Origin: Candidatus Omnitrophota bacterium
GTDB lineage: Bacteria; Omnitrophota; Gorgyraeia; Zapsychrales; Fredricksoniimonadaceae
DNA length: 64,000 bases
Direction of reading: 5' to 3'
NCBI GenBank assembly: GCA_903944345.1
Contig: CAJARJ010000021.1
Span: 110,900-174,899, forward strand
Made by a program: the position numbers and the translations under genes. Positions 885 through 40,423 of the stretch are shown here, piece by piece; positions within the stretch are counted from its first letter, which is position 1; each line of letters starts with the position of its first letter. The notes under the pieces are model-generated. The model worked only from the letters and a program-made list of their open reading frames with translations. It did not search any database and was not told the DNA's origin.

Positions 885-933
885 CATTTACCGGAGCGGC
901 ACAGAGTTGCTGGCTCCGGCCGTAAAGGCAGTT

Positions 934-3821: not shown

Positions 3822-3854
3822 TTGAGCGTTAACCCGGGATAAGTGGAGCAGATT

Positions 3855-5070: not shown

Positions 5071-5091
5071 TACTCCTGGGTGGGCGCGGAC

Positions 5092-16666: not shown

Positions 16667-17986
16667 TCAGTGTCCTTGTGTCGCAGACGGGGAAATTTTC
16701 TGCAGACGACCGGAGAGTTCGTCAAGTTCCCGGTCGCCTGTTTCGAGTGACGCCTCGACGGCAGACAGTTCACGTTCGATGTCTGTCAGGCTCCGGTCAA
16801 CCAGTGCAAGGTCTTTTTGTTGCAGGCTGATGGCTGCATCTTTTTCGTTCATCTGTGTTTTGCGCTGCTCGCTCTGTATCTTGAGTTCAGAAATTTCGTT
16901 GGCACGCAGGTTTAGGGTTTCGTTGGCCCGGGTACGTTGCTCTTTTTCGGTTGCAAGGGTTTGCTTGAGGGTTGCGATTTCCTGGGTCAGTTGGACAATC
17001 TGTTCGTTTAGCTGGGCAACTGTTTTGTTGCTCTGAGCCAGAGAGTTCTTAAGACCGGACAGAGATTCGTCCCTGGCCGCCGTGTCGGCACGCAGCTTGT
17101 TCAGTTCGGCCGAGCGCTCGGCAAGCTGACTTTTAATGTTGTTGATTTCACTCTCCTGTCGAGGGTCGTTATAATTGATTTTTGAACGCAGCTCGCCGAA
17201 ATATTTTTCAATGCGGTCCACAGCGGCAATCGCTGCGGTTTCAGAGCCTTTGAGGTCGGAATTAATCCGGGTAAGGCTGGTTTTAAGTGCGTTAAGTTGC
17301 TCGATATCGGCGGTCACAGATGCATTTTGCCCGATCATTAATGCGCGTTGTTCGACCAGCAGTTTCTGGTTTTCTGCAGAGGACGGCTGGTTCACTACGG
17401 TTGTTGCAGAGGCGAGCGGCTGTCTTTTTTCAAGCTCTTTGAGGATTTCTCCTGCACGAAGCAAATTCTGGGGAACACGTTCGGGCTGCAGTTCGGCTGT
17501 TTCGCTTAAATATTGTTCGCTATAGGTATTGCCGAACAGTTTCTCTCGCAGCTCCATGACTTCCCTGGTCCGTTTATGCAAGGACATGTAAAGCTGATCG
17601 TTTTCGGTAACAAGTTCACGGATCAGTCCGCTCAGCTCTTTGAATTCGGACTCCCTTGATCTGGCCTCCTTGCGAAGATAAGAGAGATCGGCCAGGATCG
17701 CAAGCGACTGATCGTCAGTTTTTACGCGAGGGACAAGTCCTTTGGCCGTACGGGCCAGGTAATCCTGGGCTGTTTTGTTTTCAGGGTCGATAAGTAAGAT
17801 TCGTTCAAAGTCCTTGGTAGACTGCTGGATATTCCCCTGTTCAAAAGCCTGGATAGCGAATGATTCAAGAAAGCGCAGACTCCCGGGGTCGTTTTGGGCT
17901 TGGACCGGAAGAGCGCACAGCCCCGGAAACAGCAAGGCTGAGAGCAGGATAAGCAGGCGTTGAGAAAAAAAGTTTATGTTATTCAT
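16667..17986 (-). CDS. secreted protein with an N-terminal TPR-like helix pair and a long coiled coil
   Basis: Signal peptide (LLSALLFPGLCALPVQA), then FERILLIDPENKTAQDYLARTA, then about 330 aa of heptad-rich, Q/E/L-rich sequence. Confidence 0.5.
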   Translation of the reverse strand: MNNINFFSQRLLILLSALLFPGLCALPVQAQNDPGSLRFLESFAIQAFEQGNIQQSTKDFERILLIDPENKTAQDYLARTAKGLVPRVKTDDQSLAILADLSYLRKEARSRESEFKELSGLIRELVTENDQLYMSLHKRTREVMELREKLFGNTYSEQYLSETAELQPERVPQNLLRAGEILKELEKRQPLASATTVVNQPSSAENQKLLVEQRALMIGQNASVTADIEQLNALKTSLTRINSDLKGSETAAIAAVDRIEKYFGELRSKINYNDPRQESEINNIKSQLAERSAELNKLRADTAARDESLSGLKNSLAQSNKTVAQLNEQIVQLTQEIATLKQTLATEKEQRTRANETLNLRANEISELKIQSEQRKTQMNEKDAAISLQQKDLALVDRSLTDIERELSAVEASLETGDRELDELSGRLQKISPSATQGH

Positions 17987-17990
17987 GTTG

Positions 17991-18818
17991 TCATTTCCCC
18001 TGAATAGATGAAATGTCCTGGCGCAAGGCCCGGATGGTCTGGTTTTTTTGGTCGATTGACGACTGGATAGCGCGAATGCGCTCTTGTATGCGGGTCAGCC
18101 GTCTGGCCAGATCAGTGTCCTGCGGCTCTGTGCTGATAATCTTTTCAGTCTTTATTTGAGCAGAGTTTTCTGATTTCAGGCTGACAGAGGAGTTGGGCTG
18201 ATTTTTCATGCGTTCGATGATCGCGGACATTTCATCGGCCTGACTGCGGCTTTCATCCAGCTTCTTCAGAAGTAATTCCAGATTTCCGGTGTTGTTGGTG
18301 CGTAACCCTGCCAGCTCTTTTTCAAGCGCGGAGACATTGTTCTGCATTTGATTGATGATGAGTGTGTATTTTCTGCTGTTTTCGGCCAGTTCTTTACGGG
18401 CTTGAACAGCCTTGCGGCTGTGTCGGAAAATCTGTTCCTGCAAAAGCAACCGGTCGTGTTCATAGAAGACAGAGGCTGAAACAAAGTCGACCTGGTTAAA
18501 ATCCAGTTGTTCACAAGGAAGATTTCCTAGAGTTTCTTCGGCTATTGTCGCGCCCGGAGCGGCGGTGGCAATTTTTTGCAGATGATATTGAGCCAGTTTA
18601 TTGCTGCATTCCAGTTCCAGAATCCGCTTGAAAGCGTCTGCTGCCTGGGAGTAATGACCGCCCAGATACAGTTCACGGGCATAACGGGTCATTTGCCCGG
18701 TGGTTATTTGGCGCACGGTTTTGTGATCAATGTCCGTTTGTAAAGGTGCAGACAGAGCAGTGGTCAGCGGGGCAGCCAGAAAACAAGAGAATAAAGCAGA
18801 TAAAAATAAATAGCGCAT
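17991..18818 (-). CDS. secreted TPR-like/coiled-coil protein, a paralogue of the downstream gene
   Basis: Signal peptide. FKRILELECSNKLAQYHLQKIA is homologous to the N-terminal module of 16667..17986. Coiled-coil C-terminus. Confidence 0.5.
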   Translation of the reverse strand: MRYLFLSALFSCFLAAPLTTALSAPLQTDIDHKTVRQITTGQMTRYARELYLGGHYSQAADAFKRILELECSNKLAQYHLQKIATAAPGATIAEETLGNLPCEQLDFNQVDFVSASVFYEHDRLLLQEQIFRHSRKAVQARKELAENSRKYTLIINQMQNNVSALEKELAGLRTNNTGNLELLLKKLDESRSQADEMSAIIERMKNQPNSSVSLKSENSAQIKTEKIISTEPQDTDLARRLTRIQERIRAIQSSIDQKNQTIRALRQDISSIQGK

Positions 18819-18981
18819 GACGATTCCTGTTTTTGCAGATTTCTCAAGATTTAACGCAAAAGTATAACATCAATCTGTATGAATTGCCAGAAAACGACCC
18901 GATAGGCAAAATTATAACCATAATCACCAATAAGTGTCAAACAATAAGAAAATGCTGGTTCGACAGGCATATCGATAATTT

Positions 18982-21579
18982 TTATTTAAAAAAGCTGGCC
19001 ACTGAAATCTCCGCTGGACTGATGGCACGAATCAAAGGTGTAAGTCCTTTTTCTAATATAGTTTGCATGCTTTTTGAGAGGGGGCTGTTTTGCGTGTCCT
19101 GATTGGTTTCGATAGATATGTCCAGGGAGGAAGGGTCAAGGTCAATACCGCCAGGCGTTTGGGGGGCTTGGGAGCGGTCAATCATAAGCGGGATCGATTC
19201 CTCCTGGAAAGCAGTGGCATCTTTTCCGTCCAACTCGCGGAGATAGTCGCGCAAATTATTGTCGATGGTGGCCACTCCGTCAGTAAGTTTGGTTTGTCCT
19301 TTAGGCCAGCAAACAACAATATACCACCCTTGTTCCGGGATGAGCCGCGCATAGAAAGCGTAGTTGTTCGCCAAGGTCAGATGATAAAAGCCTTCGTGCA
19401 GGTTGTTCTCGGGGTCATTATAAAACTTAATCAATGTTTTGATGATGTTTTCGAGCATGTTCGGTTGTACGGAAACCCAGGTTTTTCTTTTTATAAGGAA
19501 AACAGGCAGATCAGCGGCTACTATTTGTGTCTGCGTTTTTTGTTTGGCTCTAAAGGAGCTGGGGGAAATGTGTATGTTCCTGAGTAACTCGATGATTCGG
19601 GGAAGAGGGATAATCAGATTATCCGATAGTTCGGCCGACATGGAATCAAAATCATTCCAGAGGCCGTTCTGGATTTTTTTCAGCAAAGATTCTTCGGAGA
19701 ATGCGTTTGAGAAGTCGCCTTCTTCTTCCTTGCGGATGACATGCTCGTCGCGGATTTCAAGAAAAAGTTTCGCCCGATTTTCGGGGGTCAGATTTTCTTG
19801 TGGATTAGGATGCTGCGCCAGCAGAGGCCGTAGAATGCTTGTGATCCGTTTGAACCGTTCGTCTACAGAATATTGATGCATGCCGCCCGCGGCAAGGGCC
19901 GCTTTCAGATCCGGATCGGTTTCTTCTTTCAGTTCCCTGAAAAGACGTTGAGAAGATTTGGGATACGCTTTGTCGTCCAGTCGCCAATAAGCCCGGAGCA
20001 GTGCCAGATCCTCTTTATCCAGCGTCAATTGACCGGCAAACATTGGCAGGGCCGTTTCAGGTCCGTCAGCGTTGATGATCGGTAAAAGTGATCTGAGATA
20101 GATGTCGCGCAGAACGTAGAGAGGGATCTCCGCGGGGAATTTCGTGATGCCGGCGGTCTGTTCGAGCGATTTTGTAAAGGTACCGGCCTGTTTTTTGGAG
20201 AGCACTATCGGGACGCTGTCTATTTCAGTACGAATGGCATCGTAAGCAGAAATACTCCCGTCGGACTCAAGCGGGGCATCGTTCAGAAGATCGCGCAAAG
20301 CGGCAATATGATTGTTGATTTGCAGGAGGAAGACGGATATGTCCGGACTTTTTTTGAGCCAGGGGGTCATGTTGTTGCGTATGGCCGACAAAAGTGTGTT
20401 GAACGTATTGGGTGCGACAGGTTTTGTGCGTGATCCATTTGTGTTTTTCCTGGTGGCCGGAGGCTGGGATGCATCCTTGACCGGTTCCAGGATGACGGCT
20501 GCCCGTCGATATTTTCTTTCGGGTACTTCTGCCAGGTCTATCAGGATCGGGTCCGGCATTTGCAGCTGCAGACCTCCCGAGGTGTATTTGCGGACAATCA
20601 TGTCTCCTGTAAGCGGATCCTGGTCTTCCTTGATAAACGAGTAAGCTCCTTGCCGAAAGGCCTCCATGTACTGTTCCCACAGGCGCTGAGGGGTTCGGCT
20701 ATCCGTACTAGCCACTCCCCGGATTTTATTCTGGTCAGCGTATGCTTTGGTTAGAAAGGCCGAGCGGAGTTTGTGTTTAAACCAGGAGGCCAGAACAAGG
20801 CTGGATGAAATTGAGCGCAGTGGCGCGAAACGGGCATCGTTATTGACTTGCTCCTCGAGATACGGCAACAGGATTTCGCGTAAAAGTCCTTCTGCCAGGG
20901 CATCCCGCCGGGTTTGCCGTTCCTGGTCGCCAAGAGAAACCCTTGGAATATCCGGATCGGTTTTAAGGAGAACTTTCAGGCGCACAGCCGATACAAAAAC
21001 GCCGTTGCGGCTGTTTTCGTGCAGCCGAACCTGGTCAAGTGTAATCCATGCCTTGTGAACCAGATTGACGGGCATGTCAGCGGTTTCTCCCTGTTCGCTG
21101 GCCAGGGTATAAAAGCGTTTCCAGAAAAGATCTCCGACCGGATGCCCGGGCGCCAGTGCCAGGGAAACCTCCTGTTTCAGGGCCTGGTCTTGTTCAAGCA
21201 TGTCCCGTCCCATGATGGTTTCTCCCAGCGATGGAGGAATAATACGGTCTTGTTCGTTGGGGGAAAGGTTGACCCAGAGCTCTTTTTCAGGAACGGTCAG
21301 GGCGGTCAGAAAATATTTGACCAGCCGGGTGGTTTCGTTTTTAAGTGTTAAAGAAGGCATATGGGTATTGTCTTCCAGAAGGAAATCCAGCCGGAGTGGA
21401 TGTTCAGGGGCGATTTTTATTCCACATAGTCGAAGAGGGGTGTTGAGTGCTGGCAAGGCTACCGGCTCCGGAGATAATGCGGCGCTAAGAGAGGGCAGAG
21501 GAATCCCGCCAAGCGGTAGAAATAAAGCCAGAAATACACAAAGAAATAAACGAATCGGGGAATATAAGAAATATTTCAT
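18982..21579 (-). CDS. large secreted protein of unknown function (paralogue A, 865 aa)
   Basis: Signal peptide. A ~330 aa N-terminal region is clearly homologous to that of 21687..24347 (YFLTALTVPEKELWVNLSPNE; AVWFKHKLRSAFLTKAYADQNKIRGV). The C-terminus has no recognisable domain. Confidence 0.6.
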   Translation of the reverse strand: MKYFLYSPIRLFLCVFLALFLPLGGIPLPSLSAALSPEPVALPALNTPLRLCGIKIAPEHPLRLDFLLEDNTHMPSLTLKNETTRLVKYFLTALTVPEKELWVNLSPNEQDRIIPPSLGETIMGRDMLEQDQALKQEVSLALAPGHPVGDLFWKRFYTLASEQGETADMPVNLVHKAWITLDQVRLHENSRNGVFVSAVRLKVLLKTDPDIPRVSLGDQERQTRRDALAEGLLREILLPYLEEQVNNDARFAPLRSISSSLVLASWFKHKLRSAFLTKAYADQNKIRGVASTDSRTPQRLWEQYMEAFRQGAYSFIKEDQDPLTGDMIVRKYTSGGLQLQMPDPILIDLAEVPERKYRRAAVILEPVKDASQPPATRKNTNGSRTKPVAPNTFNTLLSAIRNNMTPWLKKSPDISVFLLQINNHIAALRDLLNDAPLESDGSISAYDAIRTEIDSVPIVLSKKQAGTFTKSLEQTAGITKFPAEIPLYVLRDIYLRSLLPIINADGPETALPMFAGQLTLDKEDLALLRAYWRLDDKAYPKSSQRLFRELKEETDPDLKAALAAGGMHQYSVDERFKRITSILRPLLAQHPNPQENLTPENRAKLFLEIRDEHVIRKEEEGDFSNAFSEESLLKKIQNGLWNDFDSMSAELSDNLIIPLPRIIELLRNIHISPSSFRAKQKTQTQIVAADLPVFLIKRKTWVSVQPNMLENIIKTLIKFYNDPENNLHEGFYHLTLANNYAFYARLIPEQGWYIVVCWPKGQTKLTDGVATIDNNLRDYLRELDGKDATAFQEESIPLMIDRSQAPQTPGGIDLDPSSLDISIETNQDTQNSPLSKSMQTILEKGLTPLIRAISPAEISVASFFK

Positions 21580-21686: not shown

Positions 21687-24347
21687 ATGGAAAAATATTT
21701 CAGGTCAGGCATGCAAAAATTGTTGGTTTGTATAGTTTTGAGTGTGTACTGTTCGGGGCTATTTTCGCCTGTGAGCGTGGCCGCGGTCGCTTTGCCTCCC
21801 GCAGGCGTTCCGGTACGCGGCAGCGAGCTTTTTGTTCCGGCTCTGCTGAAAGGTGTTCGTTTCTTTGCGGATGAGCCCTTTAGGCTGGAATTTTTTGTTG
21901 ATGCGGGTGATGGAATTGACAATGACGCTTTGCTTGAAGCTGAAACAGACAGGCTGATTAAATATTTTTTGGCCGCCTTGACTCTTCCTGAGCGGGATGT
22001 GTGGGTGAATCTTTCGCCTTATGAGAGCGAAAGGATTGTACCGGAGGCTTTGGGGAGGACTCAGCTGGGACAGGATCTTTTAGCCCAGGATTATGTCCTT
22101 AAACAATTGAGTGCTTCTTTAGTACATCCTGACGAAGAGGGCGGAAAGCATTTCTGGCGCGAGGTTTATCGAGCGGCGAGAGAGTTGTACGGAACCAGCG
22201 ATATTCCGGTGGATACCTTTAACAAGGTCTGGGTTGTTCCGGCCACGGCTGGGGTTTATGCCACAGAGGGTGGGGTCTTTATTGTAGATTCTTCGCTCAA
22301 GGTGCTGGGAGAGGAAGATTATCTGGCGCTGAGTCAGGCCGGACAGGCTTTCGGAGATGACCTTCAGAAACAGCTTTCATTGTTGTCCGGTCAGGCTTTG
22401 CGGACGGCGATTTTACCGCTTTTGGGGCAAGAGGTGAATCACGGTCGTGATTTTGCGCCGTTACGTCAGATTTACAGTGCCGTTATTCTTGCGGTCTGGT
22501 TCCGTCGACATTTGCGCGATACAATTCTTGGCCGGGCATACGCCGACCGGGGACTGGTGCGCGGAATTGAGGCGGAGGATGCTGATATGAAAGAAAAGAT
22601 TTATCAACAATATCTGGCCGCTTTCCGCAAGGGTGTCTTTGACTTTGTGCGGGAGGAGATCGATACCGACGGCACACTTCTGCCCAGAAAATATTTTTCC
22701 GGGGGAGCGGAGTTTGGGCAGGTGTCGCTGGAGGACAGGTCGCAGTCGGCATTTGAGTTGGTCGGCGGGGCAAGGATTTTCAGGGGGAAGATTTTTCGGG
22801 CTGTAGCCGATCTGGTTAAAACAAAGAGTGAAACACGTTCTCCTGGTGAAATAAAGCCAATTCGGTGGGAGGGCGTAGAGTCGATCCGGGAGCTTGACTA
22901 TAAAGTTTTACGTATGATCGGCAAAGATGTGTTTCGTTTGGGGAGAGCGGAGATAATAAATAAATCCGGACCGCGGAATTCTTTTTATTATCCGATAATA
23001 AATCCTGATACCGGGGAGCCTTATGAAAGACCCGTTGGTTTTAGTGGCGAGTTTTTTACAGACAAGCCTTTAATTGTTGATTTGAACCTGAAACTCAACA
23101 AGTTCGGAACAGACAAAAAGAGTGAGCCTTTGCTGGGCAAACGGTTAGGGAGCTCTTTTCTGCGCCATTTGCTGGCTTTGAGCCATGACATGGTTATTGA
23201 GGGTGGAGTTGAGAATCTTCCGACGAGGAAGGCCTTGGCAGAATCCTGGAAGCGCGGGGAGGTTTCTTCAGAGAATGATTGGCGCCATGTTTTTATCCGT
23301 ACGATTCTTGGAAAGTCTTTCCTGGGTGCGGGAGTAAAGCCGGAAGAGATCTTTATGACTTATTACAGGGACGCTTCTTTCTTGAGAGGGGCTCCGGCTT
23401 TGGAAAGCATGTTGCGGGACTGGGAAATGGGTCTTTTTATTTATCCGGTCGGATTTCATATTGAGAGAGGTGCTGCGCAGGATGCTTTTGATGCTTCCCA
23501 GAAAGAAAGTAGCGGCCGGGATGTGCGGCGATTTTTGCAGCGGCTTGATAATATGACTTTAAGGGAAGTGGACGGGGAGGTTTATCGACTGGGCGAAGTC
23601 CGTATTACGCCATTATCGAGGAAGGAATACAAATTTTCGTACCCCGTGATTGATCCTCGCACCGGCCAGCCCTATGAAGATCCGCTTGGTTTTAGCGGGG
23701 TTATTGAGGCCGGGGCTGCAAAAGTCAAGGATCTTGATCTGCGGCTGCAGGATCAGAATGCCCCGGCAACAGGAAATTTTTTGCTGGGCAAGGGGCTGGG
23801 GAATGTTTTTCAGAGAGAGTTGCTGTCGCTTCATCCGCAGATGGTGATTGAGACCAGTATTGAAAATGTCCCGACAATGGCGGCGATCGATACGGCGATA
23901 GAGCAGGGTCTTATACGTACGGCAGATGATTTGAAACAGGTGTTTCTTTCTTCGGTCCTGGGCAAGAGTGTTCTGGCTTCGGGGGCAAAACCGCACGAAG
24001 TCGTGATGACATACTACGGAATAAGTTATTTCCGGGACGACATTCTTCCTGAAAATCAGCAGGCGGTTGACCAGTTGCTTGCGGATCGTCGTGCCGGAAT
24101 GCAGTTTCGGGTTGGCTACAGGATTGACCGCCGGTTGAGCCATGTGGCATCTGCTGCGGATGCGGTCAAAGGCGGTGTCGATCTTTCTTCGGCGCTCGTA
24201 CCGCTGGATGTCTCGGGGCAGAAAGATTCAGTCCTGAATCAGGCAGAGATGGCAGAACTAACGCAGATCGAGGGTTTGCGTCCGGTTATCTTGCGGATGG
24301 AGAAAGTGGATGATCCGGCGGTTATAACCCGTGCGCTTCGCCTTTGA
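21687..24347 (+). CDS. large secreted protein of unknown function (paralogue B, 886 aa) with a C-terminal tandem repeat
   Basis: Signal peptide. The N-terminal domain is homologous to paralogue A (YFLAALTLPERDVWVNLSPYE; AVWFRRHLRDTILGRAYADRGLVRGI). Two ~215 aa repeats follow (YPIINPDTGEPYERPVGFSG / YPVIDPRTGQPYEDPLGFSG). Confidence 0.6.
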   Translation: MEKYFRSGMQKLLVCIVLSVYCSGLFSPVSVAAVALPPAGVPVRGSELFVPALLKGVRFFADEPFRLEFFVDAGDGIDNDALLEAETDRLIKYFLAALTLPERDVWVNLSPYESERIVPEALGRTQLGQDLLAQDYVLKQLSASLVHPDEEGGKHFWREVYRAARELYGTSDIPVDTFNKVWVVPATAGVYATEGGVFIVDSSLKVLGEEDYLALSQAGQAFGDDLQKQLSLLSGQALRTAILPLLGQEVNHGRDFAPLRQIYSAVILAVWFRRHLRDTILGRAYADRGLVRGIEAEDADMKEKIYQQYLAAFRKGVFDFVREEIDTDGTLLPRKYFSGGAEFGQVSLEDRSQSAFELVGGARIFRGKIFRAVADLVKTKSETRSPGEIKPIRWEGVESIRELDYKVLRMIGKDVFRLGRAEIINKSGPRNSFYYPIINPDTGEPYERPVGFSGEFFTDKPLIVDLNLKLNKFGTDKKSEPLLGKRLGSSFLRHLLALSHDMVIEGGVENLPTRKALAESWKRGEVSSENDWRHVFIRTILGKSFLGAGVKPEEIFMTYYRDASFLRGAPALESMLRDWEMGLFIYPVGFHIERGAAQDAFDASQKESSGRDVRRFLQRLDNMTLREVDGEVYRLGEVRITPLSRKEYKFSYPVIDPRTGQPYEDPLGFSGVIEAGAAKVKDLDLRLQDQNAPATGNFLLGKGLGNVFQRELLSLHPQMVIETSIENVPTMAAIDTAIEQGLIRTADDLKQVFLSSVLGKSVLASGAKPHEVVMTYYGISYFRDDILPENQQAVDQLLADRRAGMQFRVGYRIDRRLSHVASAADAVKGGVDLSSALVPLDVSGQKDSVLNQAEMAELTQIEGLRPVILRMEKVDDPAVITRALRL

Positions 24348-24427: not shown

Positions 24428-26995
24428 ATGGAACCTGCCGTGACCCCTATGCTCAGACAGTATCAGGAGATCAAGTCTTCTCACCAGGACTGTATTCTTT
24501 TCTTTCGTCTGGGCGATTTCTACGAAATGTTTTATGACGATGCACGTACCGCTTCTCGCGTGCTTGAGCTGGTGTTGACCGCGCGCGGATCAGACGGTTC
24601 CGGCAAGGTGCCGATGTGCGGCCTGCCTTTTCATTCGGCTGATAATTACATTGCGAGGCTTGTTCGGGCCGGGCACAAGGTGGCGATTTGCGAGCAGGTC
24701 GAGGATCCCTCCCAGGCCAAAGGCATTGTCCGCCGGGAAGTGGTGCGGATTATTACAGCCGGGACGTTTCTGGATGATGCCGCCGAAGCCCGGTATATTG
24801 TGGCCATTGCTCCGGGTACCGGAAAGACGGGGTTGGCTTTTACTGATACCGCTACCGGAGCCATTGCGGCCAATGAGTTTGCCGGGGTTCACCAGATTCT
24901 TGAAGTTTTGGCCAGAATTCCGGTCTATGAATGTGTGTTTCCCGAATCAAGCGCGCAGCAGGTGCGTGGACTTTTGTCGCATCCCATGCTGAGACTCAAG
25001 GCACCGGTATTCAGTCCCTTTCGCGACTGGGCCTTTGATCCGGGGCGGGCGGGCAAAACCCTCACCGGTCATTTTGACACACACAGCCTGGCGGGTTTTG
25101 GTATTGAGGGGATGCCCCTGGCGCAGGCGGCGGCCGGTGGACTGGTAGAATATTTACGGGAGATGAACAAGGCTCCGCTGAAACATATTGACCATATTTC
25201 GCGTTATGACGATACCGGGTATGTTTTTATTTCTCCGCCGGCTTATCATGGGCTGGAACTCGACTCTCTGGTCAGGAATCTGGATCGCACCGTCAGTGCG
25301 GCAGGTCGCCGGTTGTTTCGTTCCTGGCTCACGCGTCCGCTGAAAGACCCTTGTGCGATACGTTCGCGTCAGGATGCGGTTATTGTGTTGCGGGATTCTC
25401 CCGGGTTAGGAGCGGGATTGGCCCGGGTTCTGGGTGATATGCCTGACTTCGAAAAAGCTCTTTCACGGATCAGTTGCGGAAGCTGGGCTGCACGCGATTT
25501 ACTGGCTGTGCGCCAGGCCTTGTCGTGTGCTCCGCGCCTGCGGGAGGCGCTTGGCGCGGCAACCGTTTCGGATCCTTTGTTGCAGGTCAGTGATCCGGCG
25601 GCTGTGCGCGAAAAACTGGAAGCCGCCATTGATCCGCAGATGCCGCTGGCCAAGAACGAAGGCAAGGTTATTCGTCGGGGCTTTAATACCGAACTTGACG
25701 AACTCAAAGGGCTCGAGGAGAATGGCGTCTCCTGGCTGCAGAGTTACCAGGCCAAGGAAATTCGTCGCAGCGGGATCAATTCGCTTAAAGTCGGTTTTAA
25801 CCGGGTGTTCGGTTACTATATCGAGATCACCAATGCCAATCTGGCTTCGGTTCCTCCCGAGTATACGCGCAAGCAGACGCTGACCAACGGGGAAAGGTTT
25901 ATAACTCCCGAGCTAAAGGAATACGAATATAAAATCCTGACTGCGCAGGACAAGATTCTCAAACTGGAAGCTGAAATTATGTCGGCCCTGGCCAGGGAAT
26001 TGATGGCGCATATTTCAGTTTTGCATGCTTTTGGGCGCGAGGCGGCGGCTATTGATGTTCTGGTTTCCCTGGCCGCACTGGCCGCTCGGCCGCGCTGGGT
26101 TTGTCCCGAATTTGTGTCCGGTCGGGAACTGGTTATTGCCGAGGGGCGGCATCCGGTGGTGGAGGAACTGACTGGCAGCGATTTTGTTCCCAATGATACG
26201 GATCTCGATGGAGAAGCGCGGTGCATGGTTATTCTGACCGGGCCGAACATGGCCGGAAAATCAACCTATATCCGGCAGAACGCAGTTCTGGTCATTATGG
26301 CGCAGATGGGGTCTTTTGTTCCGGCCGCGTCGATGCGGTTGGGCTGTGTGGACAAGATTTTTACCCGCATCGGTGCGCACGACGAGACGGGCAAAGGGCA
26401 GAGCACTTTTATGGTTGAAATGACCGAGGCCGCGGATATTCTTAACAACCTGACTGCTGACAGCCTGGTTATTCTTGACGAAATCGGGCGGGGTACGTCT
26501 ACTTATGACGGCTTGTCTCTGGCCTGGGCGATTGCGGAATTTTTGGCGGACAAAAAAGCCAGGACGTTTTTTGCCACCCATTTTCATGAGTTGACCCTGC
26601 TGGCGGAGCAGCGTCCGGGGGTTTGCAATTATAACGTGCAGGTGCGCGAATGGGAAGACCGGGTCATTTTTATGCATCGCATTGTCCCCGGAGGGGTGGA
26701 CGACAGTTATGGAATTTATGTGGCCAAGCTGGCCGGCATGCCGGCGCCGGTCTTGTCCCGGGCCAAGACCGTGCTGGCTGAGTTCGAGTTTGGTGGCGAT
26801 CTGAAGGAACGTTTGCGTAATCCGCTTTCGTCGGAAGGTGTTGCACCGGTGCAGGGGGATCTTTTCTCCGGTGTGCGCACAGATCCGCGGTTGGAGCTTT
26901 TGCGCGAGCGGTTGCATGCGCTGGATGTTAACCAGCTGACGCCGCTTAAGGCGTTGCAGACGCTGGATGAACTCAAGAATGAATTCGGGAATTGA
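24428..26995 (+). CDS. mutS: DNA mismatch repair protein MutS
   Basis: N-terminal TPMLRQYQEIK...GDFYEMF, Walker A GPNMAGKST, 855 aa. Confidence 0.9.
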   Translation: MEPAVTPMLRQYQEIKSSHQDCILFFRLGDFYEMFYDDARTASRVLELVLTARGSDGSGKVPMCGLPFHSADNYIARLVRAGHKVAICEQVEDPSQAKGIVRREVVRIITAGTFLDDAAEARYIVAIAPGTGKTGLAFTDTATGAIAANEFAGVHQILEVLARIPVYECVFPESSAQQVRGLLSHPMLRLKAPVFSPFRDWAFDPGRAGKTLTGHFDTHSLAGFGIEGMPLAQAAAGGLVEYLREMNKAPLKHIDHISRYDDTGYVFISPPAYHGLELDSLVRNLDRTVSAAGRRLFRSWLTRPLKDPCAIRSRQDAVIVLRDSPGLGAGLARVLGDMPDFEKALSRISCGSWAARDLLAVRQALSCAPRLREALGAATVSDPLLQVSDPAAVREKLEAAIDPQMPLAKNEGKVIRRGFNTELDELKGLEENGVSWLQSYQAKEIRRSGINSLKVGFNRVFGYYIEITNANLASVPPEYTRKQTLTNGERFITPELKEYEYKILTAQDKILKLEAEIMSALARELMAHISVLHAFGREAAAIDVLVSLAALAARPRWVCPEFVSGRELVIAEGRHPVVEELTGSDFVPNDTDLDGEARCMVILTGPNMAGKSTYIRQNAVLVIMAQMGSFVPAASMRLGCVDKIFTRIGAHDETGKGQSTFMVEMTEAADILNNLTADSLVILDEIGRGTSTYDGLSLAWAIAEFLADKKARTFFATHFHELTLLAEQRPGVCNYNVQVREWEDRVIFMHRIVPGGVDDSYGIYVAKLAGMPAPVLSRAKTVLAEFEFGGDLKERLRNPLSSEGVAPVQGDLFSGVRTDPRLELLRERLHALDVNQLTPLKALQTLDELKNEFGN

Positions 26996-27004
26996 AAGGT
27001 CTTT

Positions 27005-28762
27005 ATGTCCAAGGTACATGTTCTTTCTCCTGAGGTAATAGCCCGGATTGCTGCCGGTGAAGTGGTTGATCGTCCGGCGTCGGTGGTCAAGGAGCTGATG
27101 GAAAATTCTCTTGATGCCGGTGCTGAGCGGGTGGATGTCGAGTTGCGCAGTGGAGGCAAGGATCTTATTCTGGTCAGGGATAACGGCTCGGGGGTAGAGC
27201 GTGCCGATCTGGAGTGTCTTTTTGCCCGGCATGCCACCAGCAAGGTCAGGTCTTCCGAGGACCTGGAGACGCTTACATCATTCGGCTTTCGCGGGGAGGC
27301 GTTGTACAGCATCGCTGCTGTTTCCGATGTGCGTATGAGGACGGCCACTGCAGAGTCCTCTGATGCGTGGGAGATTTGCCAGAAAGGTGGCGAGCGTGTT
27401 TCCCTGATGCCGGCGGCACGCACCGGACAGGGGACGGAACTGCGGGTTGAGGATATTTTTTTCAACACTCCGGCCCGCAAGAAGTTTTTGCGGGCGGATT
27501 CTACCGAACTCGATCAGGTCATTCATGCATTTCTGCCGTGCGCGTTGTTTTATTATGGCTGTTCTTTTACACTTACCAATAATGGCCGTGTTTTGTACGA
27601 TCTTAAACCTGCAGCTTCGCGCGCTGACCGGGCCGCGGCAGCGCTTAATCTGGATTTGCCCTATATTCTGGAGGCCGGTGAAGATGTTCCCGGTGACAAT
27701 GTTCGTCTTCAGCTGGTTTTGGGGGATATCAATATCCAACGTCCGCGGAGGGATTTGCAATATGTTTTTGTTAACGGTCGTCCGGTTCAGCACAAGGGTA
27801 TTGCTTTTCAGGTCAATGATGTTTACCGGCTGATCATGCCGCAGGGCGTGCATCCGTTTTTCATGATTTTTTTGGATGTTCCTCCGGAAGATGTTGATGT
27901 GAACATTCATCCCCAGAAGCGCGAGGTGCGTTTGCGGCAGGAAGGCCGCGTTAACAGTATTCTGCGTTCTGCAGTTGAACGGGCGCTCATGGCTAAAAGT
28001 GGCGCGCGGCAGTTTGCTCCGTCACAGGATGAGCCTGTTCTTTTGCCGGCTGATCAGGGCATTTCCGCAGACCGGATTCTTTTTCATTCCCGTCAATCTG
28101 GCGGTTTTTCTGGTGCTCGCGAGAGCCTCGGGATTCCCCGTCCTTTGGCTGTGCCGGAATTTTCCCAGGAGAGGTTGTTTTCTTCTCCACAGGAAGGGCT
28201 CAAGGAACGTCTGGCAAGGGGGCGGCTTATCGGCACATTCATGTGCAAGTACCATCTTTTCGAGGAATCCGATTCTTTGTTTCTTGTGGATCAGCATGCG
28301 GCCCAGGAGCGTATTATTTTTGAGCGTATAATGAGCCAGGTTAATTCGGGCCGGGTTGAAGTCCAGCGCCTGCTGGCACCACTGGCGGTGAGGTTGACCG
28401 CCGTGGAAATGCTGGCCTGGGAGAGGTTGCACGGACTGCTTGATCAACTGGGTTTTGAGACTGCTCTTATAGGAAAAGATGCGGTAGCAGTTTCATCGCA
28501 TCCGCTGTTGCTGTCCGCGCCGGAGAATGTGTTGCGTCAGCTTCTCGCTGACGAGGGGCAGTTGAAGGCGGATACAGAGTCTGTGGCCCGGCGAGCCTGT
28601 CGGGCATCGGTCATGAGCGGAGATCGTATGCAGGCTGTTGCCGCGGAGAATCAACTCAGGGAGCTTCTGGCCTGTGCGGATTCCATGACTTGTCCGCATG
28701 GTCGTCCGGTTTTTATTGAGATGAAAGCCGACATGCTTGACCGGCAGTTTTTTCGTCTTTAG
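27005..28762 (+). CDS. mutL: DNA mismatch repair protein MutL
   Basis: GHKL ATPase motifs (VVKELMENSLDAGA, DNGSG), C-terminal dimerisation domain, 585 aa. Confidence 0.9.
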   Translation: MSKVHVLSPEVIARIAAGEVVDRPASVVKELMENSLDAGAERVDVELRSGGKDLILVRDNGSGVERADLECLFARHATSKVRSSEDLETLTSFGFRGEALYSIAAVSDVRMRTATAESSDAWEICQKGGERVSLMPAARTGQGTELRVEDIFFNTPARKKFLRADSTELDQVIHAFLPCALFYYGCSFTLTNNGRVLYDLKPAASRADRAAAALNLDLPYILEAGEDVPGDNVRLQLVLGDINIQRPRRDLQYVFVNGRPVQHKGIAFQVNDVYRLIMPQGVHPFFMIFLDVPPEDVDVNIHPQKREVRLRQEGRVNSILRSAVERALMAKSGARQFAPSQDEPVLLPADQGISADRILFHSRQSGGFSGARESLGIPRPLAVPEFSQERLFSSPQEGLKERLARGRLIGTFMCKYHLFEESDSLFLVDQHAAQERIIFERIMSQVNSGRVEVQRLLAPLAVRLTAVEMLAWERLHGLLDQLGFETALIGKDAVAVSSHPLLLSAPENVLRQLLADEGQLKADTESVARRACRASVMSGDRMQAVAAENQLRELLACADSMTCPHGRPVFIEMKADMLDRQFFRL

Positions 28763-28877
28763 GCAGGGAAAGCGCTATTTACGCTTGACGCTCGGCTTCA
28801 AATCAATGACAATACTTTGTTCCAGGCGGTTGTGTCGATTCTCCGTCAAAGGTTTCTATGATTCGGATAATTTCTTC

Positions 28878-30329
28878 ATGAACAGATATCTTTTTTCAAG
28901 TTTTCTTCTGGCCTTTTTCACGGGCGCTTCTTTTTCTATGGCGCAGAGTGAAGGTCCGCAGCTGATAGTCGAACGTTCCGGATTTATCGACGAACTTTCC
29001 ACTCGCGATCAGGATGTGCGGGAGGTTATCGAGCTTGTTGCGCGTAAGGGCGGACTTAATGTCATCAGCGGTCCCGAGGTTAGCGGCAAAGTTACGATTA
29101 TTCTGCGGAATGTGGACGCTAGGGAAGCGCTGCGGACGGTGCTGGAGTCGTGTGGACTGGCGTACTCCGAGGATGGCGCTATTTTGAGGGTCATGACCGC
29201 AGAAGAGTATTCTCTGCGCTATGGGCGTTCATTTGGCCGGGATAAAATTACGCGCGTGATAGGGTTTCATTATATTCCGGTGCAGAAAGCCGCAGCACTT
29301 TTGCAAAGCATGAAAAGCGAAAGCGGACGAGTCATCGCGGACGAGGCGACCGGCAGCCTTGTGATCACCGATGATCCCGATAAAGTGCGTGCCATGGAAG
29401 AGGCCGCGCAGGCGCTGGACATTGAGCTTACCGAAAAAATCCTGACGCTCAAATATGCCCGTGCGGAAGATGTCTTTGAAGCGGTTCGAGATATGGTCAC
29501 CCGCAGTGTGGGCAGCGTTCAGTGCGATGTCGGCGGTAACCGGCTGATTGTGAACGATTCACCCTCCAGTATCGAAAGGATACGGCGTGCGGTGGAGCGC
29601 GAAGATGCCCGCAGTCGTCGGGTTATCCTTGAAGGCAAGCTGGTGCATATTATTCTGGATGACGAACATCTGGGAGGAGTGGACTGGGCCGGGATTCTGG
29701 ATGATTACCGGAACCTGCGTCTGCGCGGCAGATATGATTTTCTTGATGGCGATTCGCAGGACAGGGTTCTTAGCCTCGGAGTTATCACTAATGGCGACTT
29801 CGAGCCTTTGCTTGAAGCGCTGGAGACAGTGGGAGATGTCCGGGAATATCCCTTGAGCAATGTGCGTTTGAGTCAGTCCGACAATGCCCGGGTGACGGTG
29901 CATTTTGACGAGCCAGCCCTTAGTCTGGTCAGCACCAGAGATGAATCGTTTACGCGGGGTACGCAGGCGGCGGCCATGGATTTTGATGTCCGCTTGAGTG
30001 TCGATCCGCAGGGACAGATCGGAGCTAGTGTTATTCTTTCGGATCCGGGCCAGGAACAGTTGCCTTTTTCCAAGGCTTCGGCGGGGGCGCTGGAATTTTG
30101 TTCCGGGGCCACCGTGGTGCTGGGAGGGTTAATAGCCACCGAGAAGATTGCTACAATTCGCAAGATTCCCTTAATGGGGGATTTGCCGATTTTCGGTTTT
30201 GCTTTTCGTTACCGGAACAGTGCTGTTCAGCGCGAAGAGTTTGTGGTATTTCTTACGCCTCGGCTGGTGGTCAGGGATGATGCCGGCGAGATCCTTGAGA
30301 AAACCGAAGTCTTGCAGGGAGGCAATTGA
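28878..30329 (+). CDS. secretin family outer-membrane channel protein (GspD/PilQ-like, short form)
   Basis: Signal peptide. N-terminal secretin_N-like repeats. C-terminal secretin core (ATVVLGGLIATEKI...IPLMGDLPIFGFAFR...EFVVFLTPRLV). Confidence 0.65.
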   Translation: MNRYLFSSFLLAFFTGASFSMAQSEGPQLIVERSGFIDELSTRDQDVREVIELVARKGGLNVISGPEVSGKVTIILRNVDAREALRTVLESCGLAYSEDGAILRVMTAEEYSLRYGRSFGRDKITRVIGFHYIPVQKAAALLQSMKSESGRVIADEATGSLVITDDPDKVRAMEEAAQALDIELTEKILTLKYARAEDVFEAVRDMVTRSVGSVQCDVGGNRLIVNDSPSSIERIRRAVEREDARSRRVILEGKLVHIILDDEHLGGVDWAGILDDYRNLRLRGRYDFLDGDSQDRVLSLGVITNGDFEPLLEALETVGDVREYPLSNVRLSQSDNARVTVHFDEPALSLVSTRDESFTRGTQAAAMDFDVRLSVDPQGQIGASVILSDPGQEQLPFSKASAGALEFCSGATVVLGGLIATEKIATIRKIPLMGDLPIFGFAFRYRNSAVQREEFVVFLTPRLVVRDDAGEILEKTEVLQGGN

Positions 30330-31354
30330 TGCTGCTTCGCCGACTGTTTGCGGTTCTCATTTTGCTGTTATCGGCCGGATGTGCGTCGGTCCCCAGAAAG
30401 CCTGTTGTGGATATTCCTGCGCATGGTCTGGTTCTGGTCGAGATTTGCCGCCGGGACGGGATCACTTGTGAGTGGGACGGGCTGGGACAGACTGTTGCGG
30501 TAAGTTCCCGGGAAAACAGGGTTCTGGCAATGGTTGGCAGTACGCTGGCATTTTCCGGTGAACGTCAGGTGACTTTAAGCGCTCCGCCTCTTTTGTTGTC
30601 CGGCGCTGTGATTGTTCCGCCGGATCTGGAAGCCATGATTGTTTCATCCGCCGGGAAGGCCGAGGTGCCACGCTGGATCGGGCGTGTGGTTGTAGACGCC
30701 GGACATGGCGGCAAAGATCCCGGCGCGTTAGGCGTTAATAAGGCCAAAGAAAAAGAAATCGTACTGGATATTGCCAGAAGAATCCGGGACGGACTGGTTC
30801 GGGCCGGCATCGAGGTGATCATGACCAGAGACGACGACGAGTTTATTTCGCTGGCGGATCGTTCTCAGTCAGGCAGCCGGCCGGAAGTGGATATTTTCTT
30901 GAGCATTCACGCCAATGCGCACAAGAATCGCAGTGCGCGTGGCATTGAAGTTTTTTTCTCCGGTCCGTTAAATTCGACGGATCTTGCGGATGACCAGCGT
31001 ATCCGCAATGGGCGGCTCATGCTTTCTTCCCTGGGGTTGGAGAATTCTTCGGCTGAATTGCGCCGGATTGTTTTTGATATGCTGTACGCTTCCAAAATGT
31101 CGGCAAGCCCGAGATTGTCGGCGGCTATCTCCCGGCATTTATCCGGAACGATTCCGGATAGTCGTAATCGCGGCAGCAAGCCTGCCCGTTTCTTTGTTTT
31201 GCGGCATACTTTGACGCCGGCGGTTTTGATCGAGACTGGATTTGTCAGTAATTTGAGAGAAGCTCGCCTGTTGACCAGCGAGTCCTACCGGCGCAAGCTT
31301 GCGGACGGTATTGTAGAAAGTGTTTTGGAGTTTCTATATGATCAGGGATTGTGA
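30326..31354 (+). CDS. N-acetylmuramoyl-L-alanine amidase (Amidase_3), lipoprotein
   Basis: Lipobox LLSAGC. Catalytic domain with VVDAGHGGKDPGA...IFLSIHANA. Start overlaps the secretin stop (ATGA). Confidence 0.8.
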   Translation: MMLLRRLFAVLILLLSAGCASVPRKPVVDIPAHGLVLVEICRRDGITCEWDGLGQTVAVSSRENRVLAMVGSTLAFSGERQVTLSAPPLLLSGAVIVPPDLEAMIVSSAGKAEVPRWIGRVVVDAGHGGKDPGALGVNKAKEKEIVLDIARRIRDGLVRAGIEVIMTRDDDEFISLADRSQSGSRPEVDIFLSIHANAHKNRSARGIEVFFSGPLNSTDLADDQRIRNGRLMLSSLGLENSSAELRRIVFDMLYASKMSASPRLSAAISRHLSGTIPDSRNRGSKPARFFVLRHTLTPAVLIETGFVSNLREARLLTSESYRRKLADGIVESVLEFLYDQGL

Positions 31355-32147
31355 CCGTCCTATCGGGGTTTTTGATTCGGGCATTGGCGGATTAACCGTG
31401 GCCCAGGAGATTACGCGTCTTTTGCCCAACGAGCAGATCGTTTATTTTGGCGATACCGCCCGGGTTCCGTATGGCACCAAGTCGCGGGAATCCGTAGTGC
31501 GGTTTTCGCGCGAGAATATGAATGTTCTGCTCAAGCACGGGGTCAAGCTCGTGGTGATTGCCTGCAATACATCGACCAGCTGGGCGCTGGGCGCTATTCG
31601 CAAGGAGTTTGCGGTTCCGGTTATAGGTGTTATCGAGCCGGGGGCACGCAGTGCTTTGAAGGTCTCCCGCAAGCGCAGCATCGGGGTTATTGCGACGGCC
31701 TCGACCGTGGCCAGCGGCAAGTATGCGTCCACGATCGAGCGTCTTGCGCCGGGGGCTCATGTGGTGTCCCGGGCCTGTCCGCTTTTTGTTCCTTTGGTCG
31801 AAGAGGGCTGGCTCGAAGGAAAAGTTACCGAAAGTGTGGCGCGGGAATATCTGGCTCCCTTGCGGGACGCCGAGGTAGACACTCTTATTCTGGGGTGCAC
31901 ACATTATCCTTTACTGAAAACCGTTTTGCAGAAAGTGATGGGGCCGGGAGTGGTGCTGGTGGATTCCGCTGCTGAAACGGCCAAAGAGGTCAAATTTTTG
32001 CTTGAGAAGGAAGGGTTGGCCAGAAGCGTCCGGCGGCCTGCACATCACGAGTTTCTTGTTTCCGATGAGCCGGAGCATTTCAGGGCACTGGCCAAGCGTT
32101 TTCTCGGCCACGATCTGCCGCATGTCAGGAGAGTCAATCATGTTTGA
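31338..32147 (+). CDS. murI: glutamate racemase
   Basis: IGVFDSGIGGLTV, CNTSTS and GCTHYP active-site motifs. Confidence 0.85.
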   Translation: MIRDCDRPIGVFDSGIGGLTVAQEITRLLPNEQIVYFGDTARVPYGTKSRESVVRFSRENMNVLLKHGVKLVVIACNTSTSWALGAIRKEFAVPVIGVIEPGARSALKVSRKRSIGVIATASTVASGKYASTIERLAPGAHVVSRACPLFVPLVEEGWLEGKVTESVAREYLAPLRDAEVDTLILGCTHYPLLKTVLQKVMGPGVVLVDSAAETAKEVKFLLEKEGLARSVRRPAHHEFLVSDEPEHFRALAKRFLGHDLPHVRRVNHV

Positions 32148-38783: not shown

Positions 38784-39067
38784 GGAAATGTTCCTGTTGT
38801 TTTGTTTCGAAAGACGCTTTTAAGAATATTGGGACTTCGGGATATTAATTCAGACGCAAGGTATTATATCATAAAGGAAAAGGAAGGCACTGGATCAGGG
38901 GGCATTTTTATTGGTCCGTATGAAATGCTCTTTTTGTCTACAAATCAGCCGGATGATAAGCTAGAATCGGAGACGTTGGTTTTGGTCATTCACAGCTTTT
39001 ATACACCGCATACTTGTCGTTACCGGACGGCTGTTGCGTAACTCGGGTTCAGGACGGAGGGGTTTAT

Positions 39068-40423
39068 ATGAAAGTCATCAAGGAGAAATACGCCCAGCTG
39101 ATTGCGGCGCAGAATGATCCCAAACGTTCGTCCTGGGCAGGAGTCAATTCCGTCACCGGGGCCGGGTTAACCAGTGACGCCGTGAATCTTATTCTTGCCG
39201 AGGCGATAGCCGCGCGCACCAGCGATATTCATATCGAGCCGTTTCAGGACATGATGCGGATCCGTTTTCGTGTAGACGGGATTCTTTATGAAGTTTTGAA
39301 CGTGCCGCATGCCCATAATGTGAATATTGTGGCCAGAATAAAAGTTTTGTGCAATTTGCCGACTGACGCTATCGCAAGCCGCAAGCCCATGGACGGGCGT
39401 TTTTCAGCCAAGATTGGCAAAGACGAGTTCGATTTTCGCGTGGCCACATTTCCTACGCTGCTTGGCGAAAAGATTGCCATTCGTGTGTTGAGCAAGAAGC
39501 ATGGTCAGGTTAATCTTAACGGGATCGGGATGAATCCCGAAGATTTGTCCAAGCTTGAGCGCATTATTGGTTGTGATAACGGACTGTTGATTGTGTGCGG
39601 GCCGACCGGCAGCGGCAAGACCACAACCTTGTATTCGGTATTGAACTATCTGCACTCTCCCCGGCTCAACATCGTCACGCTGGAAGACCCTGTTGAGTAC
39701 CAGATTTATGGCATTAACCAGTGTGATATTCGTAAAAAAGGCGATGAATCTTTTGCTTCGGGGCTTAAAGCGGTTTTGCGCCAGGATCCGGATGTTATCC
39801 TTATTGGCGAGGTGCGTGATCTGGAAACCGCCGAGATTGCTATCCGGGCGTCGATCACCGGACATCTGGTTATGACAAGTATTCATGCCAACAGTGCCTT
39901 GGGGACAGTTGTCCGTCTGGTGAATATGGGGCTGGAAAGGTATATGGTTTCCTACGCTGTTATCGGGGCAGTTGCCCAGAGGCTGGTGCCCCAGTTGTGC
40001 GAGAAGTGCAGGAGCCCGTATTCAATTGAAACTTCGACGTTGCGTGCTTTATGTGAACAGTTTGACCTTGATCTTAATCTTTTTCTTCCTGCGGCCCAGA
40101 CGGCGGTTCGGGAAGGAAAGATGCGGGAAGTTGGTCAGGCATATGCCGAAGCGATAGCCGCCTCGACCGCGACTTTTTACAAGAAAAACGGCTGTGAGCA
40201 TTGCAATGGAACAGGCTATATGGGACGAGTCGGAATATTTGAGGTGATCATGTTCAGTGAAGAGTTGCGCGACGCCATTGTGCGCGGGGTTTCCTTGACT
40301 GATCTTGAGGAGATTGCCCGCAAGAAAGGCAATCGTTCTTTGGCGATGGATGCGATAGAAAAAGCCAAGCTGGGGCTGGTGACTATTGATGATATTTACC
40401 CGATTTTGCTGGAGAAGGGCTGA
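39068..40423 (+). CDS. GspE/PilB-family secretion ATPase (short form with C-terminal zinc finger)
   Basis: Walker A GPTGSGKTT, Asp box, Walker B, His box and a tetracysteine motif (CEKC...CEHCNGTGY). Lacks the long N-terminal domains. GGAGGGG RBS before ATG 39068. Confidence 0.7.
   Translation: MKVIKEKYAQLIAAQNDPKRSSWAGVNSVTGAGLTSDAVNLILAEAIAARTSDIHIEPFQDMMRIRFRVDGILYEVLNVPHAHNVNIVARIKVLCNLPTDAIASRKPMDGRFSAKIGKDEFDFRVATFPTLLGEKIAIRVLSKKHGQVNLNGIGMNPEDLSKLERIIGCDNGLLIVCGPTGSGKTTTLYSVLNYLHSPRLNIVTLEDPVEYQIYGINQCDIRKKGDESFASGLKAVLRQDPDVILIGEVRDLETAEIAIRASITGHLVMTSIHANSALGTVVRLVNMGLERYMVSYAVIGAVAQRLVPQLCEKCRSPYSIETSTLRALCEQFDLDLNLFLPAAQTAVREGKMREVGQAYAEAIAASTATFYKKNGCEHCNGTGYMGRVGIFEVIMFSEELRDAIVRGVSLTDLEEIARKKGNRSLAMDAIEKAKLGLVTIDDIYPILLEKG

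Follow-up and report, generated by a model that had tools for sequence, protein, structure and literature searches.

In a 64-kb stretch of DNA from Candidatus Omnitrophota (below referred to as the window, the positions of which are used as coordinates), an open reading frame (ORF) located between mutL and the gene of a cell-wall amidase was found to encode a short secretin of 483 amino acids that stands apart from any secretion operon. We consider it to be an orphan secretin that derives from a type II secretion system (T2SS), that has acquired an altered channel function and that adjoins the amidase for historical reasons, a reading to which we assign a probability of about 0.5. In the scenario that we propose, the pair would go back to an ancient arrangement in which a T2SS operon ended right at the amidase block, an origin suggested by those lineages in which the same amidase is directly preceded by such an operon. 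The secretin would have stayed by the amidase once the other T2SS genes were no longer found upstream, and mutS-mutL would have become the upstream neighbour later, in the lineage of the window, so that no insertion of a secretin between mutL and the amidase has to be assumed. As the comparisons show, the signal peptide, the ring-building N domains, the outer barrel and the membrane-insertion segment have been kept under purifying selection since the uncoupling, and constraint has been lifted from the periplasmic gate. The protein may still assemble as a multimeric ring in the outer membrane, and it would no longer serve a T2SS pseudopilus as its canonical, gated exit port, acting instead as a stand-alone or re-purposed channel. 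The adjacency to the amidase would be mainly historical and operonic (co-expression), and not a matter of mechanical dependence. Secretins are usually understood as parts of larger machines, i.e. the T2SS, the type III secretion system, type IV pili (T4P) and the phage export systems, with the gate as the feature that is conserved best. In the present case, an entire lineage within an uncultured phylum appears to keep a secretin under selection outside such an operon, with a gate that is drifting.

By all predictions made from its sequence, the window ORF is a genuine secretin under selection. The N-terminus, as read from the sequence, represents a cleavable signal peptide with the cleavage site between MNRYLFSSFLLAFFTGASFSMA and Q. 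The Pfam N0 domain matched residues 42-104 (27.7 bits against a cutoff of 27), Secretin_N (PF03958) matched two stretches (87 bits), and the Secretin domain (PF00263) was recovered with 58 bits against a cutoff of 27.5, where the match covered only positions 108-168 of the 169 positions in the profile. The core motifs KLVHIILDDEHLGGVDW and KIPLMGDLPIFGFAFRY are conserved among the homologues, and a family profile, built from 24 members of the secretin family, aligned the whole core (residues 292-474) to the solved structures of PilQ (3e-43) and GspD (2e-42). The core motif that had been recognized in the initial annotation withstood the profile searches. In the AlphaFold model (predicted local distance difference test score, pLDDT, 78.9) the N0 domain spans residues 36-106 and is followed by two beta-alpha-beta-beta-alpha domains (120-246) and a beta-rich core (247-463). 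When this model was compared to the PDB with Foldseek, the top matches were all secretins (InvG, PulD, GspD, PilQ and pIV), with E-values down to 4e-20; the template-modelling (TM) scores were low because the domain arrangement differs in the monomer model. The protein can therefore be placed in the secretin superfamily on basis of the C-terminal domain, the combination of N0, Secretin_N and signal peptide, and the fold, and the initial description of a short secretin of ~480 residues, with Secretin_N repeats and a C-terminal core, has proven accurate. What it does not have is the conserved GATE1/GATE2 segment of the inner barrel.

The comparison with the well-described secretin families was less straightforward. 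The window protein possesses three N domains, lacks an S domain, ending around 17 residues past the core, and Pfam identified no AMIN domain in it. With GspD/PulD/XcpQ (TIGR02517; PDB 5WQ7, 6HCG, 5WLN) it shares N0, the ring N domains and the double-barrel domain (profile matches of ~1e-41 to 1e-42), whereas it has one N domain fewer than the four of GspD, neither an S domain nor a pilotin signal, none of the gspC-M, pseudopilin, ATPase or platform genes as neighbours, and a hinge in which the VG of AKILVGSTEP reads VH. The score on the NCBIfam GspD model was 127.3 bits, below the cutoff of 351.35, and the secretin from an Omnitrophota T2SS operon (L005; loci outside the window are indicated by L numbers) likewise stayed below it with 259. 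PilQ (TIGR02515; PDB 6VE2) gave the best sequence match to a solved structure, with 3e-43 across N0, N1 and the core. Nevertheless, the score on its NCBIfam model (157.1 bits) was below the cutoff of 284.35, AMIN domains are absent, mutL is found upstream where pilMNOP would be expected, and the PilMNOP operons of Omnitrophota have their own, different group of secretins. The system that resembles the orphan most is the T2SS-operon secretin of the same phylum, the gspD of those loci for which a preprint (10.1101/2023.11.21.568195) describes giant genes as neighbours. It is built in the same short form, with a signal peptide, N0, two Secretin_N domains and a core but without an S domain (~505 amino acids), and it lies directly upstream of the amidase in three lineages. 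It is encoded in a full operon, its core and gate are conserved at 69% and 76-86%, respectively, and PF00263 matches it end to end, whereas the window secretin has no operon partners, a shorter and diverged gate, a partial PF00263 match and an evolutionary rate that is around two times higher. Altogether, the orphan looks like an unusual variant of a known protein and not like a new kind of system.

To describe the genomic context, species-representative genomes and metagenome contigs were scanned; the counts that follow are lower bounds and hold among the matches listed. The homologues closest to the secretin (92% identity, the next ones 40-49%) came from metagenome-assembled genomes (MAGs) of Candidatus Omnitrophota. 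Nine relatives (40-47% identity for the secretin) have the gene order mutS-mutL-secretin-amidase-murI-queD-queC-queE-queF-rph-rdgB, after which an AsmA-like gene lies on the opposite strand, and the pairing of secretin and amidase was kept at the orthologous locus of every mutL-type relative examined. In at least 12 more divergent Omnitrophota the secretin is located directly upstream of the same amidase-murI-que block and the gene upstream is not mutL; here, the position is taken by an rsmB/F methyltransferase gene, sometimes followed by that of an Rce1-like protease. Finally, in three lineages (L013, L020 and L089-L091) a complete T2SS-like operon ends with a T2SS-type secretin, after which the amidase follows directly. 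As far as gene order can tell, the old and stable unit is secretin-amidase-murI-queDCEF-rph-rdgB, and mutS-mutL is just one upstream neighbour among several. It had initially been supposed that a classic mutL-amidase neighbourhood, like that of Escherichia coli, had received the secretin as an insertion. We reject this explanation, since amiB precedes mutL in E. coli and the amidase of the window follows it, and since the upstream neighbour varies (mutL, rsmB/F or a T2SS operon), mutL being found in this position only in the clade of the window.

The nearest relatives outside the orphan group are the secretins of the Omnitrophota T2SS operons (33-35% identity, E-values of ~1e-75 to 1e-85). These operons comprise gspE-F-G, pseudopilins, K, a PilM-PilN fusion, M, an AAA_22 gene and a gene for a 205-aa protein, and then the secretin. 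Such operons with their own secretin are located away from the amidase in L005, L014, L015, L087 and L088, and the PilMNOP-type operons (L036, L044, L050 and L066) carry their own secretin as well. In a neighbour-joining tree of 230 core columns (300 bootstraps), the amidase-linked orphans were monophyletic in 91% of the bootstraps and the mutL-type subgroup in 94%; the T2SS-operon secretins, including the three that adjoin the amidase, formed another group (73%), and the PilMNOP-type secretins were separate. Three features assign the window secretin to the orphan group: its gene directly precedes the lipoprotein amidase-murI-que block, the protein falls among the orphans in the tree (neighbour-joining only), and its gate is diverged. 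The group is restricted to Omnitrophota and tied to the amidase block, and a single origin appears likely, though not secure. The MAG RA.bin108 holds a T2SS-operon secretin (L015) as well as an amidase-linked one (L019), which implies that the amidase-linked gene represents an additional paralogue, at least in that genome.

The loci that were compared showed some further features. A MerR-like gene immediately precedes the orphan secretin in L016 (4720-4953), L017 (3090-3341) and L019 (605-847); its products (77-83 amino acids) are 74-78% identical and far more conserved than that secretin. A homologue with 57% identity lies inside the T2SS operon of L089 (4243-4467), between the GspM-like and the AAA_22 genes, and the MerR-like gene may be read as a trace of operon ancestry. 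Within the T2SS-like operons (L005:4250-7843, L088:10001-13422, L089:2158-5922) the PilM-PilN fusion occupies the position of GspL, and no recognizable GspC was found in these three. Their AAA_22 (ExeA-like) ATPase is 74-76% identical between genomes, and the ~205-aa protein encoded just before the secretin is unannotated. At the start of L020 (2-574), just upstream of gspE, a second secretin gene is represented by its C-terminal part, to which PF00263 matches in full, which means that the T2SS operon of L020 is flanked by secretins on both sides. In L087, a T2SS-like operon with its own secretin is flanked by giant genes (1-7832 and 20277-21425; products of 3,638 and 3,135 amino acids with beta-helix/NosD-type domains). 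The literature searched contained no paper on orphan secretins of Omnitrophota that are linked to an amidase or diverged in the gate; what it did contain were T2SS-like loci beside giant genes (the preprint cited above), with which L087 agrees.

The dN/dS ratio of the window secretin, determined against the relative that is 92% identical, was 0.066, compared to 0.059 for mutS and 0.076 for the amidase, and this ratio indicates strong purifying selection on the gene. Across larger distances, orphans evolve around two times faster than the T2SS-type secretins: between genomes with a murI identity of 56-66%, the orphans keep 26-40% identity and the T2SS-type secretins 52-61%. The conservation was then evaluated in blocks of 20 residues of an independent MAFFT alignment. 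The two groups are about equally conserved (0.38-0.79) in the N0, N1 and N3 domains, at the beginning of the core and in the membrane-insertion segment at the C-terminus. For the N0 domain, for instance, the identity amounts to 53% within the clade and to 41% in the comparison with the N0 of the T2SS-type, and the outer-barrel and membrane-insertion motifs are strongly conserved (70-75% identity). Residues 331-410 behave differently, being the least conserved part of the mutL-type orphans (22-41%) and the most conserved part of the T2SS-type secretins (76-86%), with an identity of 7-20% between the groups. In addition, this segment has a fixed length of 97 residues in the T2SS-type, whereas it counts 80 residues in the window protein and 76-89 across the orphans. 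Given its position within the core and the alignment to PilQ, we infer that the segment is the counterpart of the GATE1/GATE2 hairpins of the inner barrel. Its divergence explains the partial PF00263 match of the orphans: the T2SS-type secretins match profile positions 1-168 (159-168 bits), whereas most orphans match only positions ~93-168; in two orphans (L017 and L019) the match starts from positions 19-28, with scores that are equally low, and the orphans overall score 41-65 bits. The alignments thus show the orphan gate, as assigned here, to be released from the constraint that it has in the T2SS-type relatives.

Several observations weigh against our reading. The N0, N1 and N3 domains of the window clade are as conserved as those of the T2SS-type, which fits docking to an inner-membrane complex, and the low conservation of the gate could reflect an adaptation to different cargo and not a loss of gating. 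Furthermore, the window secretin is 26-33% identical to other orphans and 33-35% to the T2SS-type, and long-branch attraction or several independent strandings are possible, as the tree is a neighbour-joining tree and the orphan branches are long. A partner machine may also be encoded elsewhere in the genome. In that case the gene could be an ordinary gspD or pilQ that was displaced and that provides the port for a T2SS- or T4P-like machine without a secretin of its own, and the observation would reduce to ordinary gene displacement. The architecture of N0, N1, N3 and core is indeed that of T2SS and T4P secretins, and the resemblance of the N0 domain to that of the T2SS-type, the equal conservation of the N domains, the strong purifying selection and the fact that PilQ and GspD are the best matches among solved structures are all in line with such a role. 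We nevertheless hold displacement, the strongest of the rival explanations, to be rather unlikely. The T2SS operons of the relatives (L005, L014, L015 and L087-L089) and the PilMNOP operons carry their own secretin, RA.bin108 holds both kinds, and the segment that is least conserved in the orphans is precisely the one that is most conserved in working T2SS-type secretins. Moreover, N0 or even every N domain has been lost in sister branches (see below), and the NCBIfam scores lie under the cutoffs of both PilQ (157 versus 284) and GspD (127 versus 351).

The search for partner genes bears on the same question. When all sizeable ORFs of the 64 kb were compared to Pfam, no T2SS, T4P or pilin gene was recognized beyond a lone ATPase, which is discussed further on; tblastn with Omnitrophota T2SS proteins across the window found none, and neither did a scan of it for prepilin motifs. 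The absence of pilus and T2SS genes near the secretin, as remarked initially, therefore holds for the whole window. In nine mutL-type relatives of the clade no T2SS partner genes were present in the 10-kb flanks. A profile of the PilM-PilN protein in the GspL position retrieved 28 Omnitrophota matches and none in the MAGs HQL16, HQL20, HQL21 and HQL22 or in the long contigs of the clade, a negative result that counts as weak evidence against displacement; both match contexts that were inspected had their own secretin. The search with the T2SS-type secretin gave 3325 matches, of which 120 were listed.

Reduced forms of the orphan were observed in the sister branches. Orphans of ~400 amino acids without N0 (P0017-P0020) occur at the same mutL locus, and a second group (Table 1) consists of core-only secretins of 243-283 amino acids, in which the signal peptide is directly followed by the core and N0 and Secretin_N are missing. 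Nearly all of the latter are encoded between the rsmB/F methyltransferase and the lipoprotein amidase, and they constitute a tight subgroup with 99% bootstrap support. These predicted proteins show the periplasmic domains to be dispensable in the sister branches. One could regard the stepwise series of full-length, N0-less, core-only and absent secretins, combined with the faster evolution of the orphans relative to the T2SS-type and the overlap of the secretin and amidase genes, as the signature of a decaying relic, kept only since its translation aids the expression of the amidase downstream. This we deem very improbable in view of the dN/dS of 0.066, the intact ORFs in more than 30 divergent loci, the identity of 70-75% at which the barrel and membrane-insertion motifs are kept, and the strong Shine-Dalgarno sequence that the amidase has of its own. 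At the other extreme, a Phycisphaerales MAG (JAJDDB010000035.1; L085:2-11098) encodes a giant secretin of ~3,698 amino acids, in which around 20 Secretin_N-like repeats precede a normal C-terminal core.

The amidase contains a lipobox-like sequence (LSAGC) at the N-terminus, then a Cu_amine_oxidN1-like domain and finally the catalytic Amidase_3 domain (Pfam, 1e-49). Cys18, H126, E141, H194 and E302 are invariant among the amidases compared, and the zinc ligands are kept. The protein aligns in an unbroken way, regulatory insertion included, to AmiA (8C2O) and AmiC (4BIN) of E. coli, whereas the alignment with CwlV-type enzymes, which are without that insertion, splits into two stretches. On basis of the Amidase_3 domain with its zinc ligands and the regulatory (autoinhibitory) insertion it is of the AmiA/B/C type. 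It differs from E. coli AmiA, AmiB and AmiC in having a lipoprotein signal and the Cu_amine_oxidN1-like domain in place of AMIN or Tat targeting, and it scores below the NCBIfam equivalog cutoffs (AmiA 127 versus 400, AmiC 115 versus 700, AmiB 109 versus 532). In terms of sequence, the amidase looks like a housekeeping enzyme for cell separation at the septum.

The two genes are tightly joined. The junction reads AAT TGA TG, so that the secretin stop shares one nucleotide with the ATG of the amidase at 30329 (four nucleotides would overlap if TTG at 30326 were the start), and a GGAGG Shine-Dalgarno sequence is found 6 nt before this ATG. The overlap noted in the initial annotation is thus real; the motif is TGATG and not ATGA. 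In nearly all loci the secretin stop and the amidase start overlap or lie within around 10 nt. It had been proposed that this arrangement reflects a functional coupling, and one can think of a module in which the amidase remodels the peptidoglycan for assembly of the ring, in which the secretin exposes or exports the amidase, or in which it steers the placement or the activity of the amidase at the division site. The assembly of secretins is linked to peptidoglycan by ExeAB/GspAB and by the AMIN domains of PilQ, and the lipoprotein PulA exits through a secretin; besides, the tight junction with its strong internal Shine-Dalgarno sequence is conserved across the group, the adjacency persists although the upstream genes change, and T2SS-type secretins also end beside the amidase. 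Direct support for the coupling was not obtained, and we consider such a module improbable. The order amidase-murI-que-rph is equally conserved and the queuosine genes are functionally unrelated, which makes synteny by itself a weak argument. A reciprocal scan with the amidase identified at least five metagenome loci (L101, L104, L106, L108 and L110) in which the lipoprotein amidase-murI-que-rph block occurs without a secretin, with SmpB and other genes as upstream neighbours and with the lipobox and N domain of the amidase intact. In fact, the N domain remains unchanged whether the adjoining secretin is full-length, core-only or absent, and a housekeeping role in splitting the septum is suggested by the affiliation of the amidase with the autoinhibited AmiA/B/C type of cell-separation enzymes.

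In the most far-reaching reading, the orphans would be T2SS-independent, stand-alone rings with a relaxed gate throughout the phylum, reduced in places to a mature core of 220 amino acids. Such rings would function as wide pores in the outer membrane, through which big solutes, peptidoglycan fragments or DNA are taken up or released, or else as rings of the envelope that are co-expressed with the septal amidase. We regard this reading as doubtful. If true, it would mean that a secretin works with no inner-membrane machine at all. If the orphans form rings alone, they would constitute a natural minimal secretin, from which one could learn what the assembly of the ring and its insertion into the membrane require, and a candidate for a large-pore channel in bacteria that are very small and that possibly depend on a host. 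The phage protein pIV (PDB 7OFH) offers a point of comparison, being a small secretin with few N domains and no pseudopilus, like the window secretin. Changes in GATE1 and GATE2 of pIV make the channel a leaky pore, and by analogy these leaky mutants may serve as a working model of how a secretin with a diverged gate might behave. The relation is distant, however (3e-11, confined to the C-terminal part), pI/pXI and any phage context are lacking, and the window gene is chromosomal with housekeeping neighbours. Whether the orphans act alone or a partner machine is encoded elsewhere, the loci document how the tail of an operon can become stranded beside a block of housekeeping genes.

The features of the locus and the core-only secretins are listed in Table 1.

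Table 1. Features of the secretin-amidase locus (window positions) and core-only secretins in other loci (positions within the locus indicated).
Feature	Position	Strand	Basis or remark
mutS	24428-26995	+	upstream of mutL
mutL	27005-28762	+	Pfam; lineage-specific upstream neighbour, outside the old unit
Orphan secretin gene, 483 aa	28878-30329	+	ORF/translation, Pfam, PDB profile, fold, dN/dS
Putative signal peptide of secretin, residues 1-22, cleavage SMA/Q, no lipobox	28878-28943	+	sequence reading; same start in homologues
N0 domain, residues 36-106	28983-29195	+	Pfam PF21305 and STN; AF2 secondary structure
Two ring-building Secretin_N domains, residues 120-182 and 183-246	29235-29615	+	PF03958 in two stretches; AF2 units
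Secretin core (beta-barrel domain), residues 247-466	29616-30275	+	profile alignment to PilQ/GspD cores
Diverged gate segment (putative), residues 331-410	29868-30107	+	block conservation; not recognized by PF00263
Secretin stop TGA	30327-30329	+	sequence reading
GGAGG Shine-Dalgarno for amidase, within secretin 3' end	30318-30322	+	sequence reading
Lipoprotein N-acetylmuramoyl-L-alanine amidase, AmiA/B/C type, 341 aa	30329-31354	+	Amidase_3; alignment to AmiA/AmiC
murI (glutamate racemase)	31338-32147	+	Asp_Glu_race in relatives; synteny
Lone GspE/PilB-like ATPase, 469 aa, without usual N-terminal domain	39014-40423	+	Pfam
Core-only secretin	L030:9851-10654		domain scans
Core-only secretin	L032:9678-10448		domain scans
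Core-only secretin	L034:7361-8149		domain scans
Core-only secretin	L035:2281-3102		domain scans
Core-only secretin	L045:9857-10588		domain scans
Core-only secretin	L061:1997-2803		domain scans
Core-only secretin	L083:9881-10648		domain scans
Core-only secretin	L099:3656-4507		domain scans

The only other secretion-like gene in the vicinity, a GspE/PilB-type ATPase which had been noticed initially at ~9 kb from the secretin, was found 8.7 kb downstream of it. The protein scores below both the GspE and the PilB cutoffs, and its gene is found between the AsmA-like gene and ahpC only in the genome of the window and in the relative that is 92% identical, being absent from that position in the other members of the clade. 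It is therefore not part of the secretin-amidase unit and was rejected as a partner of the secretin. The ATPase gene is followed by an ORF of 225 amino acids on the opposite strand, which has no Pfam match.

With ATG at 28878 chosen as the start of the secretin, the gap to mutL amounts to 115 nt. A search of this gap for promoters and terminators gave one weak Sigma-70-like site (28785-28813), which was not above the expectation from shuffled sequences. Downstream, the start of murI, the first gene of the conserved block, overlaps the 3' end of the amidase gene. An identical secretin protein was also recovered from lake metagenome assemblies, on contigs of up to 312 kb. At the scale of the window (1-64000) the GC skew is positive in all 2-kb bins and around 50 of the 56 large ORFs are on the plus strand, which together fit a single replichore in which the genes strongly favour one strand. 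Upstream of mutS lies a gene (21687-24347, plus strand) for a protein of 886 amino acids that has no Pfam match and shows an apparent internal duplication. This protein evolves fast, with an identity of 67% and a dN/dS of 0.26 relative to a genome in which the neighbouring genes are 90-98% identical. Beside it, the minus strand (16667-21579) holds three ORFs of 439, 275 and 865 amino acids, all of them likewise without a Pfam match.

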